Assembly (NCBI GenBank): GCA_031414955.1
Contig: JANOQV010000028.1
Location: forward strand, 1-17,889
From: Pedosphaera sp.
Lineage (GTDB): Bacteria > Verrucomicrobiota > Verrucomicrobiia > Limisphaerales > SIBH01
Length of the DNA stretch: 17,889 bases
Direction of reading: 5' to 3'
Below the pieces are notes generated by a model. It had not been told where the DNA came from. It made no database searches and saw only the letters and a program-made list of their open reading frames with translations. Positions 7,644-17,600 of the stretch are shown piece after piece; the stretch's first letter is position 1; every line of letters starts with the position of its first letter. The translations under genes were made by a program, and so were the position numbers.

Positions 7644-7742
7644 GCCTGATCGCGCCCACGCCGGAGATTGCCAAGCCTCTCGCGATTTGAAATCGTCGCG
7701 TCATGAACCAGCGGCCCTCGTCGCGTCCACTCCAGGCTTTTG

Positions 7743-10433
7743 ATGCCAACGCCTGAGGAAGAATCTTCCGACGACGATCTGCTGGCCCGCTTGGGACCAA
7801 AAGCCTTGCTGGCCCGCGGGCTGGAAGAGACCGCTTCGCCGCCGCCCTCTCCCACGCCTCCGCCCACTCCGGCTGGACCGGGCGCGAGCGCACGCGATCA
7901 GAATCTGGAGGCGGCGACGCTGGCGGAAATGTTCCCCGAGTTTCGCTTTGAAGGCGTCATCAGCCGGGGCGGCTTTGGCACCGTTTATCGCGCGGAACAT
8001 CGGCAGATGAAACGCCGCGTGGCGGTAAAAATTCTCTCCAGCGCCGTCACCCGCAACGTCTCCGCCGTGGCGCGATTCGAGCGGGAGATTGCCGCGATTG
8101 GCACGCTCGACCATCCAGGCATCGTGCGGGCCTTCGATGCCGGACAGCGCGGCGGCGTGTGGTTCCTCGCCATGGAACTGGTGGAGGGCGCGGACCTCAG
8201 CACTCTCTCCCGCGCCCTCGGGCCATTGCCGCCGGCGGAGGCGTGCGAGTTGATTCGCCAGGCGGCGCTCGCGATTCAGCACGCCCACGAACGCCATCTC
8301 ATCCACCGCGACGTCAAGCCCAGCAACATGATGCTCGCCACCGAGCCGGACGGCGCGGCGCGGGTGAAGGTGCTCGACTTCGGCCTCGCCCAACTGGGTC
8401 ACAACGAAAACACCGGCGGCGAACTGACTATTTCCGGCGAACTGCTCGGCACCGTGGACTACATCGCTCCCGAGCAAATCTCCAACCCGCGCACCGTCGA
8501 TGCGCGCGCCGACGTGTATGGCCTCGGCGCGACGCTCTACCGGCTGCTGGCCGGTCAGGCGCCGCACCAGACGACCGACGCGACCTCGTCGCTTTATGCC
8601 AAACTGATTCGCATCGCCCATGAGGCGTGCCCCGGCATCGCGACGCTTCGTCCGGACCTTGCGCCCGCGCTGGCTGCCGTGGTGGATCGCATGGTCGCGC
8701 GCGACCCCGACCAACGCTTCGCCACCGCCCGCGATGCGGCGGATGCCCTCGCGCCCTTCGCGGAGTTCAGCGCATTGCCGGCCTTGCTCGCCCGTGTGCC
8801 GCGCCTTGAGCTCCAGGAATCTCAGGAACACCTCGAACCGCTTCCCCGGCCACTCCGCCGAAAGAAGTTCATTCCTCTCGTCGTCTCCCTGTTTTCGCTG
8901 GCCGCGCTCGCCGTCGTGATCGCGGTGGCTCTCCTGAATGCGGAGAAATCTCAACCACCTCGGGCGAATGCGAATACGAACCTCCCGGCCCTCGGCGGCT
9001 TTGAACCGGGCCAGGTTCCCGGCGCCTGGCTACAGGCTGATCTCAAAGCCAGCCAACCCAAAGAGGGTGACCACTTCGGCCATTCGGTTGCCGTTTCCGG
9101 CGACACGGTGGTTGTCGGGGTTCCCGGAGTTGACACCAGCTCGACGGGCGTGAACAGCACGCCCGACGAGAACGCGGCCAACTCCGGCGCGGTTTACGTG
9201 TTCGTGCGCAGCGGTTCGATCTGGACGCAGCAGGCCTGTCTCAAAGCCAGCAACACCGCGGCGAATGATCAGTTCGGCATCTCGGTGGCCATCTCGGGCG
9301 ATACGGTGATCGTCGGGGCCGCCAAGGAGGACAGCAAAGCGGCGGGCGTGAACGGCAACCAGGCGGACAACAGCGCCTTCAATTCCGGCGCGGCCTACGT
9401 CTTCACCCGCAGCGGGACGAACTGGACGCAGCAGGCCTATCTCAAAGCCAGCAACACCGGGACGGATGATCAGTTCGGCTTTTCGGTGGCGGTCTCGGGC
9501 GACACGGTGGTTGTCGGCGCATACCTGGAGAACGCCGACAGGACGGGCGTGAACAGCACGCCCGGCGACTCCGGCGCGGCCTATGTCTTCACCCGCCGCG
9601 GTTCGACCTGGACGCAGCAGGCGTACCTCAAATCCAGCAACGCCGAGGGGGGTGACCTGTTCGGCTGGTCGGTGGCGGTGTCGGGTGACACGGTGGTCGT
9701 GGGGGCCAGTCTGGAGGACAGCAACGCCACCGGCGTGGACGGCGATCAGGCGGACAACAGCGCCAGTTATTCGGGCGCCGCCTATGTGTTCGTGCGGAGC
9801 GGTTCGACCTGGAGCCAGCAGGCCTACCTCAAAGCCAGCCACCCCGTGACCGTGGTCCATGACCAGTTCGGCCACTCGGTGGCCGTCTCGGGCGACACGG
9901 TGGTCGTGGGGGCGATGAATGAGGACAACTACGCGACGGGCGTGAACGGCAACCAGGCGAACCAGAACGGCGACAAAAACTACGGTGCGGCCTATGTCTT
10001 CGTGAGGAGCGGTTCGACCTGGAGCCAGCAAGCCTATCTCAAAGCCAGCAACCCCGGGGAGGGAGACCAGTTCGGCTACTCGGTGGCGCTATCGGGCGAC
10101 ACGGTGGTCGTTGGGGCTGTGAATGAGGCCAGCAAAGCCACCGGCGTGAACGGTGAACAGGCGGACGAAAGCGCCATCAAGTCCGGCGCGGCCTACCTGT
10201 TCGAGCGGCGCGGATCGACGTGGAGCCAGCGGGCGTATCTCAAAGCCAGCCACACCAGGAAGTATGACCGGTTCGGCCGGTGGGTGGCCGTTTCCGGTGA
10301 CACGGTGGTGGTCGGGGTGAGCAAGTTGCCCGGCACCACGGCGGGCGTGAACAGGGCGTCCGACGAAAGTGCTTCCATTCCCGGCGCGGCCTACATTTTC
10401 AAAGTAGGGGACCGCGCCGACGGCGAACGCTGA
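7743..10433 (+). CDS. Membrane Hanks-type Ser/Thr protein kinase with extracytoplasmic FG-GAP (integrin-alpha-like) beta-propeller, 896 aa
   Basis: SRGGFGTVY, VAVK, HRDVKPSN, DFGLA, GTVDYIAPE and DVYGLG; one TM helix FIPLVVSLFSLAALAVVIAVALL after RRKK; seven LKAS...DxFGxSVAxSGDTVVVG...GAAYVF repeats. Confidence 0.95.
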   Translation: MPTPEEESSDDDLLARLGPKALLARGLEETASPPPSPTPPPTPAGPGASARDQNLEAATLAEMFPEFRFEGVISRGGFGTVYRAEHRQMKRRVAVKILSSAVTRNVSAVARFEREIAAIGTLDHPGIVRAFDAGQRGGVWFLAMELVEGADLSTLSRALGPLPPAEACELIRQAALAIQHAHERHLIHRDVKPSNMMLATEPDGAARVKVLDFGLAQLGHNENTGGELTISGELLGTVDYIAPEQISNPRTVDARADVYGLGATLYRLLAGQAPHQTTDATSSLYAKLIRIAHEACPGIATLRPDLAPALAAVVDRMVARDPDQRFATARDAADALAPFAEFSALPALLARVPRLELQESQEHLEPLPRPLRRKKFIPLVVSLFSLAALAVVIAVALLNAEKSQPPRANANTNLPALGGFEPGQVPGAWLQADLKASQPKEGDHFGHSVAVSGDTVVVGVPGVDTSSTGVNSTPDENAANSGAVYVFVRSGSIWTQQACLKASNTAANDQFGISVAISGDTVIVGAAKEDSKAAGVNGNQADNSAFNSGAAYVFTRSGTNWTQQAYLKASNTGTDDQFGFSVAVSGDTVVVGAYLENADRTGVNSTPGDSGAAYVFTRRGSTWTQQAYLKSSNAEGGDLFGWSVAVSGDTVVVGASLEDSNATGVDGDQADNSASYSGAAYVFVRSGSTWSQQAYLKASHPVTVVHDQFGHSVAVSGDTVVVGAMNEDNYATGVNGNQANQNGDKNYGAAYVFVRSGSTWSQQAYLKASNPGEGDQFGYSVALSGDTVVVGAVNEASKATGVNGEQADESAIKSGAAYLFERRGSTWSQRAYLKASHTRKYDRFGRWVAVSGDTVVVGVSKLPGTTAGVNRASDESASIPGAAYIFKVGDRADGER
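9042..10400 (+). repeat. Seven intragenic FG-GAP repeats (186-210 bp)
   Basis: ctcaaa(g/t)cc anchors at 9042, 9240, 9441, 9627, 9828, 10038 and 10239; spacings 198, 201, 186, 201, 210 and 201 are all multiples of 3. Confidence 0.92.
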
Positions 10434-10437
10434 CCCT

Positions 10438-10780
10438 GACTTCAGCGCAAGTGAAGGATCGTCGGTCCCACTCAACGGCATCAAGCCGGTTTCGCCTCTG
10501 TTCCGCGCGCCCGATGGCAACTTTTACGGCACCACCGATGGCGGCGGCGCGAATAACATGGACACCGTGTACCGACTCACGACCCTCGTCGAGTTCGTCG
10601 ATCCCGGCAAAGCCATGGTACTCGCCCCCTGGGGAACTCCGATTCTGGCGGCCGACGGGAATCTCTACGGCATCACCCAGAAAGGCGGGGCGGGGCGTCA
10701 CATGATTCATCGAGTCACGCCCGAGGGCAAACTCACCACGCTGGTCGAGTTCACCGGCCCGATTGCCAAAAAGAAATCGG
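10438..10780 (+). pseudogene. Orphan 3' end of a TIGR03803 (Gloeobacter/Verrucomicrobia 'GloVer')-like repeat gene, copy A
   Basis: Reads [48 protein letters not shown]...AADGNLYGITQKGG...VTPEGKLTTLVEFTG with no convincing start. Relative to copy B it has 18-bp and 3-bp deletions, and TCG where B has the TAG stop. Confidence 0.78.
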
Positions 10781-10791
10781 CGCATACGCCC

Positions 10792-10832
10792 GCCCGGCAG
10801 TTTCTTTGTCGCGTCCAGGCCGGGTTTGCTGC
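10792..10832 (-). pseudogene. ubiD: Short remnant of a UbiD-family decarboxylase C-terminal motif (tail 1)
   Basis: Reads SKPGLDATKKLPG, resembling the UbiD GSKxGIDATKKxPG motif; 30/42 nt identical to the start of tail 2. Confidence 0.6.
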
Positions 10833-11348
10833 TCATGGTTTGGTTCGGCGGTTCGCTCGCGTGGTCTTCCGCTTCCTGACGGGCGGCTTGACCGCAGTGA
10901 TGGCGGCCAGGGTATCGCGCAAGACGGGAATGGTCAGTTTGTCCTTGGCGCGATTCGCGGCCACCTTGCTCGCAAGAATCCGTTCGAGGGAAAGCACCTT
11001 GAGCTTTTGCCGCCCGAGCGAAATTTCCACGCAGTTTCTAATTTCTTCTGCGAATGTCCCCAGGCCGTCCATGCGCAGGACGATGTCGAAGAGTTCCGCG
11101 CCCGCGCCCGCGAGCATCGGTGGATTGAAGTTACTGGGCGGGACATAGGCCGCGCCGACTTCCTGCAACGCACGGGAAATTTTCAGCTCACCCAGATTTT
11201 CAAACCAAAGGTCAACGTCCTGCGTGACCACCGGTGCGCCTTGCAAGGTGGCGGCGGAAAGCCCGACGATCATGAACCGCAATTTGCGCTTCAGCAAAAC
11301 TTGCAGCAGGCGCAGTTCACTTTCTGAAAATGGCAGTGGCGCGGCCAC
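10833..11348 (-). CDS. Pol-beta-superfamily nucleotidyltransferase (AbiEii/DUF6036-like), putative toxin, 171 aa
   Basis: FMIVGLSAATLQG..VTQDVDLW and C-terminal LERILASKVAANRAKD (K...R.KD signature). GTG start overlaps the 3' end of the upstream small gene. Confidence 0.8.
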   Translation of the reverse strand: MAAPLPFSESELRLLQVLLKRKLRFMIVGLSAATLQGAPVVTQDVDLWFENLGELKISRALQEVGAAYVPPSNFNPPMLAGAGAELFDIVLRMDGLGTFAEEIRNCVEISLGRQKLKVLSLERILASKVAANRAKDKLTIPVLRDTLAAITAVKPPVRKRKTTRANRRTKP

Positions 11349-11526
11349 GGATCAGGCTCCTTTGCAAGCGTTCCAACGGTGGTTGCTCCAGCAAAATCAA
11401 GGTGTGCCGGACGTTGTCGGGATCGGCGTGAGGATGGGCGGCGAGAACTTTTCTGACGCGCATGGTCAAACGCCGCGCCCAGCGCTGGGCTTGGGCAGCG
11501 TTGCTGATTTGAGCGCGTTGTTTCAT
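11317..11526 (-). CDS. Small basic protein, putative antitoxin/partner of the nucleotidyltransferase, 69 aa
   Basis: LILLEQPPLERLQR resembles the 'L.TPEERL' motif of small proteins found upstream of such NTases; overlaps the NTase start and follows a promoter-like sequence. Confidence 0.65.
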   Translation of the reverse strand: MKQRAQISNAAQAQRWARRLTMRVRKVLAAHPHADPDNVRHTLILLEQPPLERLQRSLIRGRATAIFRK

Positions 11527-11538
11527 GCAGGCAGCAGG

Positions 11539-11567
11539 AGGCTAAACGACACCGCAAAACTTGTCAC
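11539..11567 (-). promoter_or_regulatory. Putative sigma70 promoter GTGACA-17 nt-TAGCCT for module 1
   Basis: -35 at 11567-11562, -10 at 11544-11539, 12 nt before ATG 11526; no Shine-Dalgarno. Confidence 0.55.
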
Positions 11568-11576
11568 CGGCATTTC

Positions 11577-11694
11577 CGAACCGTGAGTTCATTTTCTTCC
11601 GCACGACCGCATCCATCTTGATGAGCGGCGGCCTGGGGCGTTTGAAACCTTCGCAGGGAAGTTTCTTCATCACGTCGATGCCGAGCTTGCGACC
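11577..11694 (-). pseudogene. ubiD: Degenerate 3' end of a UbiD-family decarboxylase (tail 2)
   Basis: Reads GRKLGIDVMKKLPCEGFKRPRPPLIKMDAVVRKKMNSRF versus the UbiD terminal pattern as I recall it (GSKxGIDATxKLPGEGFKRxWPPLIKMD). Conserved A, T, G and W are substituted, consistent with decay. Confidence 0.75.
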
Positions 11695-11704
11695 GGGCTT
11701 CATC

Positions 11705-12085
11705 TCAGGCGCGGGACAGGGCGTTCTCGCTGACGAAAAGGTTGCGCGCACGGAAGGCGGGCGGGCTTTCCAGCAGCAGCACGGCGCGCAGCGCGGCGAG
11801 CGGCGTGGCGAACCACGGGCGATGAAGCTGCCGGTTTTCTCCCACCGTCCAGCCGGGCTGCGGCAGGCCGAAGCGCCGGGCCAGTTCTTCGGCGGTGGCG
11901 GCCAGATAGGCATCCTGCACCTGGCCAAGATCGCCGAATTGCGGCGCGAGCAGCACGGGCGTGCCCATGAGCGCGGCGGCGCGGGGCGCGGCGTAAAATT
12001 CGTCGAGGAAGTTGGCGAGGCAGCGGTCAAAGGAATCGCCTTGCGCGGCAAGCACCGCGACTTCAGCGAGGGACTTGGGTCTCAT
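11705..12085 (-). CDS. Partner protein of the DUF6036-like nucleotidyltransferase (putative antitoxin, no HTH), 126 aa
   Basis: ATG 12085 overlaps the upstream stop (ATGA). Motifs DAYLAATAEELA, P.W, PWF and ESPPAFRARNLFV are typical of partners of this NTase type. Confidence 0.75.
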   Translation of the reverse strand: MRPKSLAEVAVLAAQGDSFDRCLANFLDEFYAAPRAAALMGTPVLLAPQFGDLGQVQDAYLAATAEELARRFGLPQPGWTVGENRQLHRPWFATPLAALRAVLLLESPPAFRARNLFVSENALSRA

Positions 12086-12648
12086 ATTTTCCCCTCCTCG
12101 AACAATCCTTCCACGAGATACTGCGTCTTCACCGGGATGCGGTTGGCCGGGTAATACAACCCGACCAAGTCGAGGACATCCCTGGCTGAGTTGAGTTGCA
12201 GGTGACGGATGAGGAACACGATGTCTGGCACATCGGACGATTCGCCGGTGGTGCCGCCGAGGCGCGCGGCCATGCATTTCATGGCCAGCAGATATTCGGG
12301 CACCGGCATGGTGAGACGGAGGTGCGGGAACTGCGGCAGGTTGCCCGGCGTCGTTTCGTGCCGGGCCGAGACAAAGCCCTTCACACCGTCATTGAGCCAG
12401 TCCTCCGGCAGTTGCTGTTCCGCAGCGATGAGGCGGGCCACTTCACGGATGGATTGAGAAGGTTGAAAAAGCGCATCGACGTCCTTCGTCGCGAGCCGGG
12501 CGGTGAACGCCAAAACCATGACCGTGCCGCCAAAGAGGCAAAGTTCGCCCGTGACGCCCCGCTTGCCGAGTTCATCCGCGAGGGAACCCAAGGCGCGAAG
12601 AATCATTTCGCGGGTCAAGGCGGAGCCGGTTGGTGGTGATGCACTCAT
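12082..12648 (-). CDS. DUF6036/AbiEii-like nucleotidyltransferase, putative toxin, 188 aa
   Basis: LCLFGGTVMVL, ATKDVDA, LPEDWLND, PEYLLAMKCMAAR and DVPDI. Confidence 0.85.
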   Translation of the reverse strand: MSASPPTGSALTREMILRALGSLADELGKRGVTGELCLFGGTVMVLAFTARLATKDVDALFQPSQSIREVARLIAAEQQLPEDWLNDGVKGFVSARHETTPGNLPQFPHLRLTMPVPEYLLAMKCMAARLGGTTGESSDVPDIVFLIRHLQLNSARDVLDLVGLYYPANRIPVKTQYLVEGLFEEGKI

Positions 12649-12661
12649 GCGACTGGCATCG

Positions 12662-12690
12662 ACGCTAGCGGGAACCCAAGAGCTTCTCCA
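12662..12690 (-). promoter_or_regulatory. Putative sigma70 promoter TGGAGA-17 nt-TAGCGT for module 2
   Basis: -35 at 12690-12685, -10 at 12667-12662, 13 nt before ATG 12648; no Shine-Dalgarno. Confidence 0.4.
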
Positions 12691-12715
12691 CCTTCATCTT
12701 CATCTCACCCGCTCT

Positions 12716-13212
12716 TTAATGAACTTCAACCACACGTTTTCCCAGCACATCCATCTTGGGCGTGATGCCGAGGCCCTGTGACTTCGAGGCGGCCATGCGG
12801 CCGTTCACGCGCTGCGGCGCGCCGGCGGCGGTGCTCACGGTGACGTAGCTTTTGAAGTCGGTGGTGCTGAAGAGGAACTCCGTGGGCGTGCTGTGCGCGA
12901 GATGCGCGATGGCGGCGGTGGCGATGTCGCCGCCCCAGGAATCTTCCAGCGTCATGCCGATGCTCATGCTCACGCAGAGGTCGCGGGCCTGTTTGATTTT
13001 CGTGAGACCGCCGAGCTTGCTGATCTTCAAATTTACCACGTCCATCGCTAGGTCGGACTTGGCACGGAGCAGGATGCCGAGGTCGTCGATGTTTTCATCG
13101 AGCACGAACGGGTGCGGAATCTGGCGGCGAACAGCAAGGCATTCCTCGTAGGTCAGCACGGCTGCTCGATGTAAACATCCACGTCGCGCACGGCCTTCGC
13201 GATGCGCACGGC
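12716..13212 (-). pseudogene. 5'-truncated, frameshifted mandelate racemase/muconate lactonizing enzyme family gene (hydroxyproline dehydratase/betaine epimerase-like)
   Basis: [19 protein letters not shown], then a 1-nt loss near 13155 (TGC TGA CC for TGC CTG ACC), then [49 protein letters not shown] to the stop at 12716. The N-terminal half is absent. Confidence 0.85.
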
Positions 13213-13533
13213 AGCAATCCGGCCTCCACGTTGTTCCGCGCGCCCGATGGCAACTTTTACGGCACCACCTTTCGCGGCGGTCCTTCCGACCAGGGCACCG
13301 TGTACCGACTCACGCCCGCCGGCCAGCTCACGACCCTCATCGAGTTCGTCGATCCCGGCAAAGCCATGGAACTCGCCCCTTGGGGAGCTCCGATTCTGGC
13401 GGCCGACGGGAATCTCTACGGCATCACCCAGAAAGGCGGGGCGGGTCGTCACGGCATGATTTATCGGGTCACGCCCGAGGGCAGGCTGACCACGCTGGTC
13501 GAGTTCACCGGCCCGGTGGGCAGGAAGAAGTAG
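13207..13533 (+). pseudogene. Orphan 3' end of a TIGR03803-like repeat gene, copy B
   Basis: [46 protein letters not shown]...DGNLYGITQKGG..GMIYRVTPEGRLTTLVEFTGPVGRKK*: two repeat units with an intact stop and no signal peptide or N-terminus. Confidence 0.8.
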
Positions 13534-13662
13534 GCGGAACCGCACCCCCGGCGGGCGGCGGACCGTGGTTCCCCCCGTGCTTCCAGCGTGAGTTCACCGG
13601 AAAGGGGTCGTGACAGACTTCGGCACCCTCATCCTCGATCAGTTCGTCGGGCCGGCGCTTTC

Positions 13663-14100
13663 TCAAACGGGGAAGAGGGAGAAGCCCAGCAGCTTCGCCG
13701 CATGGCGCAGAAGTTTGTCGGTGGCCACGATTTCAGTTTCGCCGGACGCGCGCGCGGAAGCCAGATGCAGGGCGTCGAAGGTGCGGATGGGCAGGGGCGG
13801 CGTGCGGCGATAGCAGGCGGCCATGAAGGCGTTGAACTCTGTTTCGACCCGCGAGTCCAACTCGACGATACGAATTTCACCGGCCGTAATGTCCTGGTCC
13901 ACCTGGGTGAGAACGGTTTCGGCAGTGCCGGCCGGGATGAGTCCTGCGCTCTCCTTGCGAAAGGCGACACGGCGCATCTCGTGGAGCGCCAGCCGGGCCG
14001 TGAGGATGACTGGCTCGCCGGCCGCCTTCTTCTCGAAATCGGCCGAGTCCGGTTCGGGAACGTAGAGTTTGCCCAACGCGGACGTGTCCCAGTAGCTCAT
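13663..14100 (-). CDS. vapC: VapC-family PIN-domain ribonuclease toxin, 145 aa
   Basis: MSYWDTSALGKLYVPEPDS, LHEM, IRTFDALHLASA and ATDKLL give the four acidic PIN residues; starts 4 nt after the antitoxin stop. Confidence 0.92.
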   Translation of the reverse strand: MSYWDTSALGKLYVPEPDSADFEKKAAGEPVILTARLALHEMRRVAFRKESAGLIPAGTAETVLTQVDQDITAGEIRIVELDSRVETEFNAFMAACYRRTPPLPIRTFDALHLASARASGETEIVATDKLLRHAAKLLGFSLFPV

Positions 14101-14104
14101 GCCG

Positions 14105-14353
14105 CTATTCGCCCCGGTCTTCGCCGAGGATTTGTTCGACGGTCGGGCCGGGCTTGCCGGTGGCGAGCCGCGCGCGGAGTGCCGCCAACCGGACCAGCCA
14201 CGCGCGGCGGTCGGTCGCCATTCGCGGCTGGGGGACTCCGGTGAGCCTGGCCACGGCCCGCCCTTCACAGGTGATGAGCACTTCCTCGCCGTGTTGCGCC
14301 ACGTCGATGAGCCGCAGCAGGTCGGATTGCGTTTGTTCCAGCGTTGCCGTCAC
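14105..14353 (-). CDS. vapB: Phd/YefM-family antitoxin, 82 aa
   Basis: LLRLIDVAQHGEEVLITCEGRAVARL Phd motif; directly upstream of the PIN toxin; GTG start. Confidence 0.9.
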   Translation of the reverse strand: MTATLEQTQSDLLRLIDVAQHGEEVLITCEGRAVARLTGVPQPRMATDRRAWLVRLAALRARLATGKPGPTVEQILGEDRGE

Positions 14354-14387
14354 GCCGTGATTTAATCACCGGCCGCAGTGAAGTCAA
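14354..14387 (-). promoter_or_regulatory. Putative leaderless promoter (TTGACT...TTAAAT) with overlapping operator palindrome GTGATT-T-AATCAC
   Basis: -35 at 14387-14382; AT-rich -10 region at 14365-14360, ending 7 nt before GTG 14353; inverted repeat 14357-14369. Confidence 0.6.
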
Positions 14388-14651
14388 TTGCGCGGACGTC
14401 GTTCTTCTTCACCGCGCACCGGAATGGGTCTCCGCCGCGATGACGTTTGGTCCTCCCACACCTCGTTCCCTTCGTCGCCGCAAAAAATAGTTTCACTTTC
14501 CGCGTCATATCTTTCCCGGAATGACGTTCTGCATGGTGAAAGCCCAGTTGTAATCACAAAGAATCACTGAATTCAGCGTTAAATCACTCGACTCACCCGG
14601 TGGAATCCGCCTCGCGTCGAGTCGCACAACAAACACAGAAGGAAAAACAGT

Positions 14652-17600
14652 ATGAATGAAGCAATAAACAAAACACCAATCGCGGGCTTCGGCTCGAACA
14701 CCGAAAGCCCACGAGTGAAACCTCACGTGAATCCTCTCTCCAAGTGGCTGCTCGTCCTCCTGGGGACCCTCCTGCTGGTGGGATTCCGCGAGTCGGCGGC
14801 AGCGGCGTGCGCACCGACGATCGTGGGCCAACTGCCTCTCGCCGGAACCTACAAGAACGACATGAAGGTCTCAGGTGACCTGGTCTTTGTTGCGGTTAAC
14901 GGCAACCCTGGCTTGCTCCATATCATCAACGCGGCGAATCCGACGAGCCCCCAGTTGCTGAGCACATTGGCCGCGCCTCACAACGTGACCTTTCGCTCGC
15001 TGGCCGTCTCGGGGAACTACGTTTACATCGGAGGCCAAAGTAGGTTTTACGTGATCGACGTCTCCAACCCGGCTTTGCCCGTGGTTGTCAGTTCGCTTGG
15101 CGGCTACTACGATGTTACTGCTGTCACATACGAAGACGGCAAGGCCTATATCTCCGGTGCTGGCCCCAATGGGTACCACCTGCAAGTGATCGACGTCTCG
15201 AACCCAGCGAATCCAATAGCCATGGGTTCCGTACAAGTTGCGTCATTTTTTTCTAACACTTTGATTGTGAAAAACGGGTTTGCCTTCGTAGGAAGGTATG
15301 CCGTCGGGTTCTTCGTCGTCAACGTCTCGAATCCGTGGCTCCCCGTGAATGTCACCCGGATCGGAACTTATGGCTCCACAGGGAACGGTGTCCTCTCAGG
15401 CACAACCCTCTACGAAAGCTATGGGTCTGGAATCTCCGTCTGGGATGTCTCCAACCCGGCGGCTGCGGTGTACAAAGGCGGAATCGGTGGCTTTGGCACA
15501 CGTCCGATTATCGCGGTTGGCCCGGGCGATGTCCTCTACCATTCGGCGTTCGCACCGGATGGTTTCAGGGTCGTGGACATCTCCAGTCCGACTGGGCCTT
15601 GGCCGTATCGTGGCGTCCTGAATGGGCTGGCCACCGAGCTCCACGCCGCCGCCACCTCGGGCTTCTACGCATATGCAACCGATGCGACCAGGTTCCTCGT
15701 TATCGGCACAGCGGGTTGCCCCAGCGCCTCCCCGGAGATCGCCGCTTACAATGGCCCGGATACGACCTCGCCGGAATTGACCGATGGCCAGGCGGCCGCC
15801 GTGGATTTTGGCAATGTCCAACTGACCCAGTCCGCGCAGCGCCAGTTCACCATCCGTAACGCCGGCACTGCCGCCTTGAGCATCAGCGGCGTCACCTTCG
15901 CCGGCACACACGCGGCTGACTTCGCGGTCAGCGGAGTGCCCGCCTCGGTCGCACCCGCCAGCACCGCCACGTTCTCCGTCACCTTCACGCCTGGCGCCCT
16001 CGGCGCGCGCGGCGCCACGCTCCGCATCGCGAACAACGACGCGAATGAGAATCCGTTCGACTTCCCCATCACCGGCAACGCCGTTCCGCTCGACACCGAT
16101 GGCGACGGCTATCCCGACTCCACGGACATCTGTCCCGGCGTCGCCAATCCGAGCCAGTCCGATTACGACGGCGACCTGCTCGGTGACGCGTGCGACCCCG
16201 ACGACGACAACGATGGCGTGCTCGACGCGCAGGACCTCGAACCCCTCAATCCGAACAACGACAGCGACGGCGACGGCATTCCCAATCTCGCGGAAATCTC
16301 GGCGGGCACCAATCCGCTCAGCACCGACAGCGACGGCGATGGCAGCGCCGATGGCGTGGATGCCTTCCCAAGCAACGTCGCCGAAAGCGTGGACACCGAC
16401 GGCGACGGCACCGGCAACAACGCCGACCTCGATGACGACAACGACGGCACGCCCGACGCCAGCGACGCCTTCCCGCTTAATGCCGGCGAAAGCGTGGACA
16501 CCGATGGCGACGGCATCGGCAACAACGCCGACAACGACGATGACGGTGACGGCGTGGCCGATGCCAGCGACGCCTTCCCGCTCAATGCCGCGGAATCCGT
16601 GGACACCGACGGCGACGCCACCGGCAACAATGCCGACGCGGACGACGACGGCGACGGTGTGCTGGATGGCGCGGACGCCTTCCCGCTGAATCCGTTCGAG
16701 AGCGTGGACACCGACGGCGACGGCATTGGCAACAACACGGAGACGGACGACGACAACGACGGCGTGGGCGATGAGTTCGACGCCAATCCGCTCGACCCGA
16801 ACAGCGACAGCGATGGCGATGGCCTGACCGACTCCGCCGAAACCGCCGCCGGACTCAATCCGCTCGCTGCCGACTCGGACAACGACGGCACCGGCGACGC
16901 GACGGACGCCTTCCCGCTCAACGCCACCGAAAGCGTGGACAGCGACAACGACGGCACCGGCAACAACGCCGACCTCGATGACGACAACGACGGCACGCCC
17001 GATGCAACCGACGCCTTCCCGCTGAATCCTGCGGAAAGCGTGGACACCGACGGCGACGGCACCGGCAACAACGCCGACCCCGACGACGACAACGACGGCA
17101 GCACCGACGCGCAGGAAGCCACCGCTGGCACCGACCCGCTCGACAACGACAGCGATGACGACGGGCTCAACGACGGAGCCGAAGCCGCCGCCGGCACCAA
17201 CCCGCTCGACAGCGACAGCGACAACGACGGCCTGCTCGATGGCACGGAGACGGGCGTTGGCACCAACCCGCTGGATGCCGACAGCGACGACGACGGACTC
17301 AACGACGGCGACGAAGTGGCCGCCGGGGCCGATCCGCTGGATGCCGACACCGACAACGATGGCATTCTCGACGGCGCCGATCCGACACCGGCCGCGCCGG
17401 GTGTGCCCGCCGACTTCATCGAAGACCGCCTCTGCGCGCTCATTGCCTACATTGAGGCGACCGCGCTCGGCAGCTTCGACGCGAAGAATGCGAATGCCCA
17501 ATCAGGTCACCGCAACGCCCTGGCCAACCAGGTTCGCGCCGTGAAGGCCAAGGTCATTGCCGGAGACTACGATGGTGCCGCCGACAAGCTCGGCGGCGAA

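Follow-up and report, generated by a model that had tools for sequence, protein, structure and literature searches.

Anatomy of the kinase locus

We analyzed a window of 17,889 nt, the whole of contig C28 (JANOQV010000028.1) of a Pedosphaera sp. metagenome bin (GCA_031414955.1; 6.5 Mb, 313 contigs, 95.9% complete, 5.84% contamination), in which a gene for a Ser/Thr kinase with an FG-GAP C-terminal domain is followed by a variable insert of small gene modules and 3′ gene ends (Table 1). An earlier sequence-only reading had described this insert as an array of three two-gene, minus-strand modules resembling toxin–antitoxin (TA) systems, each with its own promoter-like sequence, separated by 3′ ends of unrelated genes and devoid of mobility genes. 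The three modules were borne out by the open reading frames (ORFs) and a Pfam scan, and so was the lack of mobility genes: none of the 15 ORFs scanned for families in the window encodes an integrase or transposase, and tRNA/tmRNA and Rfam searches of the window were empty. No recurring inverted repeat separates the modules, the spacers being assigned to gene tails (no attC model was run). All recognisable spacers are 3′ parts of genes, although one ubiD piece (10833–10791) is sub-terminal, and several identities had to be revised. The gene labelled ubiD, a menaquinone-pathway decarboxylase by family search, contributes three pieces rather than two, a tip at ~12709–12665 having been missed; the supposed racemase is a cis-3-hydroxy-L-proline dehydratase by family search; and the two TIGR03803-like (GloVer) spacers do not come from an unrelated gene but lie on the plus strand and once formed the end of the neighbouring kinase. 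At this locus, true displaced ends are represented by the GloVer tails alone, whereas the pieces of ubiD and the dehydratase gene are reverse-oriented passengers. Instead of one array with one kind of repeat, the locus records nested events at three genes, those for the kinase, ubiD and the dehydratase.

Table 1. Features of the kinase locus (7740–14482). Positions within ubiD are counted, here and in the text, in nt backward from its stop codon (negative numbers).
Feature	Position	Strand	Basis
Ser/Thr kinase with FG-GAP C-terminal domain; resident gene with swapped 3′ end	7740–10433	+	Pfam Pkinase and FG-GAP_2
Whole variable insert	10439–14482		ends joined in one contig of each of two runs
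GloVer tail 2, the younger of the displaced kinase ends; lacks its stop codon and has two in-frame deletions	10475–10798	+	81% to tail 1
ubiD piece, −124 to −85; begins at the NT2 stop codon	10791–10833	−	sequence match
NT2, DUF2204-like nucleotidyltransferase, putative toxin	10833–11348	−	Pfam E 0.0016, below cut-off
69-aa NT2 partner, no family	11317–11526	−	linked to NT2 in relatives
Promoter-like GTGACA-N17-TAGCCT of the NT2 module (module 3)	11539–11567	−	boxes and spacing kept in 12/12 loci
ubiD 3′ tail between the NT1 and NT2 modules	11570–11700	−	sequence match
126-aa NT1 partner, no family	11705–12085	−	family searches
NT1, DUF6036/AbiEii-like nucleotidyltransferase, putative toxin	12082–12648	−	below cut-off, and cluster match
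ubiD 3′ tip; last codons and stop form TGGAGA-N17-TAGCGT before NT1	12662–12709	−	sequence match
cis-3-hydroxy-L-proline dehydratase, 3′ 497 nt, one frameshift; passenger flank	12716–13212	−	92% to intact gene on C234
GloVer tail 1, older displaced kinase end; stop at 13531–13533 plus downstream bases	13208–13558	+	TIGR03803 above cut-off
PIN (VapC-like) toxin	13663–14100	−	PF01850 E 9e-10
Phd/YefM-like antitoxin	14105–14353	−	PF02604 E 0.0016, below cut-off
−35-like TTGACT at the edge of the VapBC cassette	14382–14387	−	conserved, 5/5 loci

GloVer repeats form the end of 18 of the 119 homologues found for the kinase part, FG-GAP being matched by none, and the GloVer tails of the window match the extreme C-termini (last 100 residues) of kinase homologues, at 65–73% for the four closest GloVer-ending ones. 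A metagenome locus (L249) carries the same ECF-kinase pair, the kinase having a GloVer end (75% nucleotide identity to tail 1) and no insert; there, the region matching 14492–14653 starts ~57 nt past the kinase-GloVer end. In one contig of each of two runs from a second study, 10439 is joined to 14482, with 44 nt on the short side of the joint. Because of L249 and these contigs, which skip the 4 kb of the insert, we conclude that an ancestral form and an FG-GAP empty form both exist and that two displaced kinase ends lie in the window, each followed by inserts; the variability among relatives on which the original interpretation depended was thus found. Of 80 loci obtained by scanning metagenome contigs for the kinase, 3 were close. 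It was the kinase as query that revealed the GloVer parent, a query with the tail only having returned repeat proteins at 36–57% and no kinase. The kinase family (7740–10433 and P0122–P0160) has at least four interchangeable C-terminal domains, as a modular receptor-kinase set. The 92 nt at 14390–14481 have no match elsewhere and are missing from the empty-site joint. A low-depth contig joins 13387 to 10637 with 14 differences, as a circle or a tandem GloVer-flanked unit would, which is a hint only.

Co-occurring strains could have given rise to a chimeric metagenome assembly, the outcome that would have undone the first interpretation. The fragmentation and contamination of the bin are in keeping with this, and none of the listed contig pieces spans the whole stretch. 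However, among the matches listed, contigs with zero differences from two runs, one of which may be the source sample, bridge five junction regions of the insert (those near 13212 and 11540 lie outside the listed matches), and the same module–tail junctions occur in unrelated genomes, some of them on contigs of 0.2–1.2 Mb. We consider a chimera extremely improbable. The runs containing the stretch are freshwater or sediment metagenomes, and no RNA dataset is among those listed.

In the VapBC module, a Phd-like gene lies upstream of a PIN gene and has a promoter-like sequence of its own. Both nucleotidyltransferases (NT1 and NT2) match DUF6036/DUF2204 below the Pfam cut-off, and NT1 falls into DUF6036/AbiEii-like Atlas clusters at 0.96–0.99; no relative with a solved structure was found for them at E<0.001, and family searches gave no match for their partners. 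The description as TA-like is firm for VapBC, because PIN passes the cut-off, and is hypothetical for the other two modules, because the nucleotidyltransferases stay below it and their partners are matchless. The promoters ascribed to the modules stood in part: a sigma-70 consensus scan of the window returned no site (0.3 expected), but conserved boxes were found at all three. Before module 3, (G/A)TGACA-N17-TAnnnT with variable spacer letters is present in 12/12 loci, and TGGAnn-N17-TAGnnT precedes NT1 in 9/9 (both read by eye); VapBC has TTGACT upstream in 5/5 loci, with a poor −10 box. For NT1, the −35-like box falls within the final codons of ubiD and the ubiD stop codon forms the basis of the −10-like box, while at one locus a repeat end provides the same box at equal spacing. 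Because the boxes lie in the ubiD end, this arrangement suggests that ubiD tips may be kept before NT1 for supplying its putative promoter. The start codons at 14353, 12648 and 11526 are ~10–20 nt past the −10-like boxes, which suggests short-leader or leaderless transcripts.

ubiD ends in the insert and in relatives

The middle block of the insert is made up, in this order, of the dehydratase 3′ half, a ubiD tip, the NT1 module, a ubiD tail, the NT2 module and a ubiD piece; it comes from another hot spot and lies, reversed, between the GloVer tails. In relatives, the NT1 and NT2 modules lie directly behind an intact ubiD or between ubiD tails. When the spacers of nucleotidyltransferase pairs were tabulated, as the sequence-only reading had proposed, ubiD sequence was found as a flank at 11 of the 17 NT1 loci and 9 of the 16 NT2 loci compared (at least 60% identity), and the proportion was lower by our own count in loci found via the module and not via ubiD (5/9 and 1/7, respectively). 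The idea that modules carry host 3′ ends elsewhere was upheld by the ubiD tips that precede NT1 here and in relatives and by a copy of module 3 with its ubiD tip on another contig. In G001 and G007, a ubiD tip and cargo are located between the dehydratase gene and its usual neighbour, the NT1 block of G007 being 92.6% identical to that of the window over 998 nt; because ubiD tip and cargo follow the dehydratase in both genomes, the dehydratase end is a passenger. It differs from the intact C234 gene by 33 synonymous and 9 non-synonymous codons.

In the genome under study, nine ubiD remnants (of which two overlap) are spread over six contigs, and the intact ubiD is cut off by a contig end within its repeated part. 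On C53 (L004:3694–6426), a degenerate second copy of module 3 and a ubiD tip are split by a unit bounded by repetitive extragenic palindromic (REP) sequences, which contains a low-GC gene and an intact Y1 transposase. C11 (L001:533–3379) holds a ubiD tail, REP repeats, a transposase remnant and two more antitoxin–PIN pairs, with two further ubiD tails at ~9.7 and 11.0 kb. On C7 (L007:731–790), a 60-nt dehydratase tail with the same type of end as the window remnant precedes a restriction-type cluster with a Fic-like gene.

Across the order, the last 249 nt of ubiD match 171 of 201 genomes, 48 of the 171 with two or more matches by our own count, for which the best three candidates were scored per genome, part of them was inspected and G230 was counted as a single-match genome. 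The same count gave repeat matches in 6/54 for lepA and 4/54 for asd, some of which are second full copies. Intact ubiD is present at 78 of 80 loci in our collection, with downstream tails in 21; where at least 3 kb is available downstream, tails occur in 17 of 58 ubiD loci. The longest array seen (G097; L127, contig C111) consists of an intact ubiD and seven tails in ~15 kb, with an AAA/DUF4143 ATPase, VapBC, an NT2 module, ParE and metabolic genes between the tails. In G148 and G002, ubiD tails are also found on large contigs other than that of the intact gene. The start points of 69 ubiD remnants are spread from −686 to −55. A duplicate without gene cargo occurs in G208 (L137:2486–2736), where a REP arm region and then a 150-nt tail are all that comes after the intact ubiD, and short palindromic repeats lie inside the ubiD remnants of L032 and L133 at ~−658 and −567. 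Eight loci (L147, L160, L169, L176, L177, L182, L189 and L215) are titled Klebsiella, Akkermansia muciniphila or Bifidobacteriaceae, and their ubiD is 89–99% identical to the verrucomicrobial query; these labels look doubtful.

Between families, the agreement of intact ubiD genes at four-fold sites is 0.50 in the 5′ part and 0.66 in the last 100 codons (169 pairs), whereas for lepA and asd, selected likewise, agreement is nearly flat along the gene. Pairs with high 3′ and low 5′ similarity number 52 of 3003 and the reverse was never seen; breakpoints range from about −1000 to −260, with a peak at −700 to −650. In one Spartobacteria-labelled ubiD, the 3′ part is 0.10 from other lineages and the 5′ part 0.40 from its nearest neighbour. 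Core-gene 3′ ends can be mosaic between families, a point of importance for phylogenetic work, and the short ‘ubiD’ or ‘kinase’ fragments found in these genomes represent scars rather than paralogues.

A REP-associated Y1 (HUH) transposase that cuts and rejoins single-stranded DNA near gene ends could in principle move tails together with modules. Such a transposase (PF01797) and REP repeats are frequent near ubiD, lying behind the gene or beside tails on C11, on C53 and in several relatives, and at two loci a REP arm stops just a few bases short of the tail. However, the transposase is present in only 6 of the 80 ubiD loci and missing from 74, none of the REP core motifs tested was found in the window, and this REP type occurs at only 2 of the 22 own-genome remnant loci described below. 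We regard this route as very improbable.

3′-end duplicates across the genome

To survey the genome, we counted partial duplicates of confident complete genes on the same contig and strand. The 43 duplicates comprise 22 3′ ends downstream of their parents (19 parents), 5 5′ ends upstream (4 parents) and 16 of other classes, so that the predicted excess of 3′ over 5′ remnants holds in this genome (22 vs 5, p=0.0015; detection is more difficult for 5′ ends). Among the parents are lepA, glmS, asd, gcvP, ispH, rmuC and the genes for pyruvate carboxylase and aldehyde dehydrogenase. Because the same scars follow housekeeping genes here and ubiD in relatives, ordinary gene ends seem to act as landing sites. 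A first genome-wide remnant list had been too noisy (121 3′ vs 105 5′ among 691) and was dropped; a second, all-contig list gave 67 3′ vs 41 5′, and the clear bias is confined to same-contig, same-strand pairs. The 130 loci of other genomes (1.8 Mb, mostly ubiD-centred) yielded 3 non-ubiD 3′ duplicates, one of them spurious, and the genome-wide 3′ excess is therefore shown for this genome only. At asd on C65 (L072), the duplicated unit consists of the asd end and ~60 nt of the end of a convergent gene. A mirror case was seen at C90:3431–7405, where the 5′ end of a restriction-type gene is duplicated upstream, with a 339-aa gene in between.

The expectation that the cargo consists of TA modules did not hold in general. 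ParE, RelE, PemK, PIN or Panacea families occur in the inserts of only 7 of the 19 parents, in a scan that left out one 3439-aa insert protein, and an eighth insert has a UPF0175/DUF3368 pair, which we take to be TA-like; the others carry a DNA methyltransferase, an AAA ATPase, large surface proteins or metabolic genes. Conversely, C-terminal remnants were found within 900 nt of 6 of 43 PIN/ParE loci (a set that omits one long PIN-domain ORF) and of 3 of 200 control genes (p=0.001), with N-terminal remnants at one locus and one control gene; 37 of the 43 PIN/ParE loci, the majority, show no remnant. At lepA, the site is empty in five relatives, occupied by a RelE-like pair and a tail in two and by VapBC without a tail in one, and in this genome it holds a reversed MazF-like pair and a tail. 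A homologue of the window VapBC is located in G003 behind a DEAD helicase gene with a duplicated end.

Parents and duplicates, compared over 3304 nt, show 56/29/187 differences at the three codon positions; of the 243 codons that changed, 179 did so synonymously, whereas a duplicate in decay should have ~39% (p=3e-28 vs neutral decay), and the similarity stops near the stop codon. Because the differences are mostly synonymous, parent and duplicate are swapped alleles and not local duplicates. An insertion that duplicates a long stretch of its target, in which break-driven copying would leave the resident 3′ end on both sides and the alleles would diverge later, has to be weighed at this point. 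As described in the available part of PMC2853133, restriction-modification genes were inserted without any mobile gene between long variable direct repeats of 45 to ~420 nt, mostly in competent species; these selfish pairs resemble our loci in all these respects, one own-genome insert is a methyltransferase locus, and at lepA and the kinase locus direct repeats of >30 nt surround an insert without a mobile gene and are single at the empty site. In addition, 5 of 36 ubiD tails are closest to their own gene. The other 31, however, are nearer another genome's ubiD, at odds with both repeats being recipient-derived; all 22 duplicates differ from their parents (80–98% identity), the synonymous excess is not that of neutral decay, and the kinase tails belong to a different domain than the present kinase end. 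The restriction-modification insertions, as far as that part of the source goes, also amount to 9 of 760 locus pairs across many genomes, compared with 19 target genes here, where the repeats run to the stop codon, diverge chiefly at synonymous positions and form stacks up to seven deep. We judge this explanation to be quite unlikely.

Probable terminus replacement and its relation to known systems

Taken together, the loci are best explained, with a probability of roughly 0.6, by serial integrase-independent terminus replacement through homology-anchored capture, similar to the homology-facilitated illegitimate recombination (HFIR) that the available text of PMC5361080 proposes for type VI secretion system (T6SS) effector–immunity and Rhs C-terminal displacement arrays. 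DNA of a relative, with the 3′ part of a shared gene and the sequence following it, would be taken up by transformation and pair with the resident gene, presumably in a RecA-dependent manner. A crossover inside the resident gene would use this homologous anchor, while at its far end the incoming DNA would be connected to the resident gene by an illegitimate joint, whose position ahead of the stop codon varies. The resident gene would remain intact with a new end, followed by the cargo and by the old end, now displaced downstream; later deletions would trim cargo flanks and tails, and blocks assembled at ubiD would later be carried to other genes, with tails as passengers. In the window, a kinase-GloVer ancestor would have received VapBC first, a new GloVer end along with the reversed ubiD/dehydratase block next, and the FG-GAP end last. 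An anchor combined with an illegitimate far joint would explain intact genes with foreign ends, variable tails, unrelated targets and the lack of an integrase. An intact anchor followed by displaced former 3′ ends is seen in the kinase tails, the ubiD arrays and the 19 own-genome parents; crossover and joint positions vary (ubiD breakpoints and remnant starts), although a peak near −680 remains; and ComEC and DprA are present in this genome, which lends weak support. Of the accumulation by terminus replacement first proposed, the displaced 3′ ends, the serial replacement and the absence of a mobility gene were retained, but not the array anatomy as it had been read.

Several observations weigh against terminus replacement by this route. 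ComEC and DprA are also found in 10–11 of 14 control genomes, all verrucomicrobial. No junction could be traced to a donor. The breakpoint peak at −700 to −650, together with longest remnants at −686/−658, could mark an old site-specific crossover, and some loci have a foreign-looking tail behind a native-looking gene. The ubiD tails show more decay (218 of 397 changed codons synonymous, 179 non-synonymous, 15 indels), the 3′ rise in four-fold-site agreement is weaker in the wider set of 78 ubiD (about 0.5 to 0.6), and both ubiD sets were chosen for 3′ similarity, which favours a 3′ gradient. Cargo–tail joints are tighter than random joining predicts, with 34 of 58 remnants beginning within 25 nt of the cargo stop, compared with 926 of 3166 co-oriented gaps in the genome. 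An HFIR-like process leaves the origin of the cargo behind the donor gene unexplained, and HFIR itself is orders of magnitude rarer than homologous recombination, according to the available part of PMC5361080.

In integrase islands and cis-mobilizable elements (CIMEs), the incoming end restores the target gene, the displaced end lies downstream and elements accrete in tandem, all of which resembles our loci. Decayed or non-autonomous islands of this kind, with recombinases acting in trans or deleted and att duplicates shortened, would have their crossover near −690 in ubiD; the breakpoint peak and the longest remnants are compatible with such a site, which erosion could hide behind the varying remnant starts. 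Many tails have internal deletions, the synonymous bias would also be expected, and PMC13617665, in its available part, proposes acquisition by mobile elements followed by streamlining. On the other hand, a single genome would need about 19 different integrase specificities, none of which is still found next to a site. The 8 tyrosine recombinases of this genome are on none of the 19 parents' contigs, no large serine recombinase was found in the genome, and no tyrosine recombinase was found in the 80 ubiD loci with these 8 as queries. Likewise, no integrase family was detected in 42 cargo proteins (38 of 44 listed minus near-duplicates, plus five from other loci) or in the 68 of 93 listed downstream proteins that were scanned, among which there was one insertion sequence-type transposase domain. 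Neither a fixed crossover nor an att core was seen, the targets are many and unrelated, the junctions lack a common motif by eye, and the swap of the kinase domain is not an att event. Three remnants that start at −658/−656 adjoin an inserted palindrome, not cargo, which counts against a fixed att site at −658. We consider such islands unlikely, if the most serious alternative to homology-anchored capture. Two further routes were dropped: circularisation by non-homologous end joining, as no Ku was found, and an origin from reverse-transcribed mRNA, as many inserts are in reverse orientation.

How chromosomal TA modules without a nearby mobile element arrive is an open question: the available part of PMC13617665, which ascribes chromosomal TA clusters to transposons and later streamlining, calls their integration unclear. 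Small variable segments bordered mostly by repeats of <30 nt are reported in PMC2884548. A search of the open-access literature returned no description of TA modules between swapped housekeeping-gene 3′ ends or of ubiD as such a site. The scars give countable, ordered events at many genes and an order-wide hot spot, ubiD, and because the loci keep them, an integrase-free route can be tested directly. A bolder extension, which we hold to be rather unlikely, is that a host-encoded, integrase-free route makes the 3′ end of almost any gene a cassette receptor, with cargo cut near the stop codon, and that ubiD tails serve as portable landing pads and promoter parts that move TA cassettes between families and orders, as an integron-like system made from housekeeping-gene tails.

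Integron arrays are likewise composed of compact cassettes ending near stop codons, include self-promoted TA modules and have the newest cassette next to the anchor. At our loci, by contrast, no IntI was found (in the window and the 80 ubiD loci), no attC-like repeat was seen, and the separators are protein-coding gene tails. In the minimal mobile elements of Neisseria, cassettes are exchanged at conserved genes by homologous recombination without a mobility gene, but the region between two flanking genes is replaced and no gene end is displaced.

The principle itself is already known from polymorphic-toxin arrays and restriction-modification genes; what is new is the range of targets, the cargo and the scale. 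In the T6SS/Rhs displacement arrays, which the available text of PMC5361080 also contrasts with integron arrays, a conserved upstream anchor is followed by the new module, old 3′ ends are pushed back, alleles within one array are not mutual closest kin, and there is no integrase, as at our loci. In those arrays, which occupy a dedicated locus, it is the variable toxin itself that forms the replaced end, whereas here the anchors also include housekeeping genes (lepA, glmS, asd, gcvP, ispH, ubiD and the pyruvate carboxylase gene) whose ends are exchanged for equivalent alleles, and the cargo consists of separate TA-like and other genes in either orientation. The domain swap of the kinase in the window is a direct parallel to these arrays.

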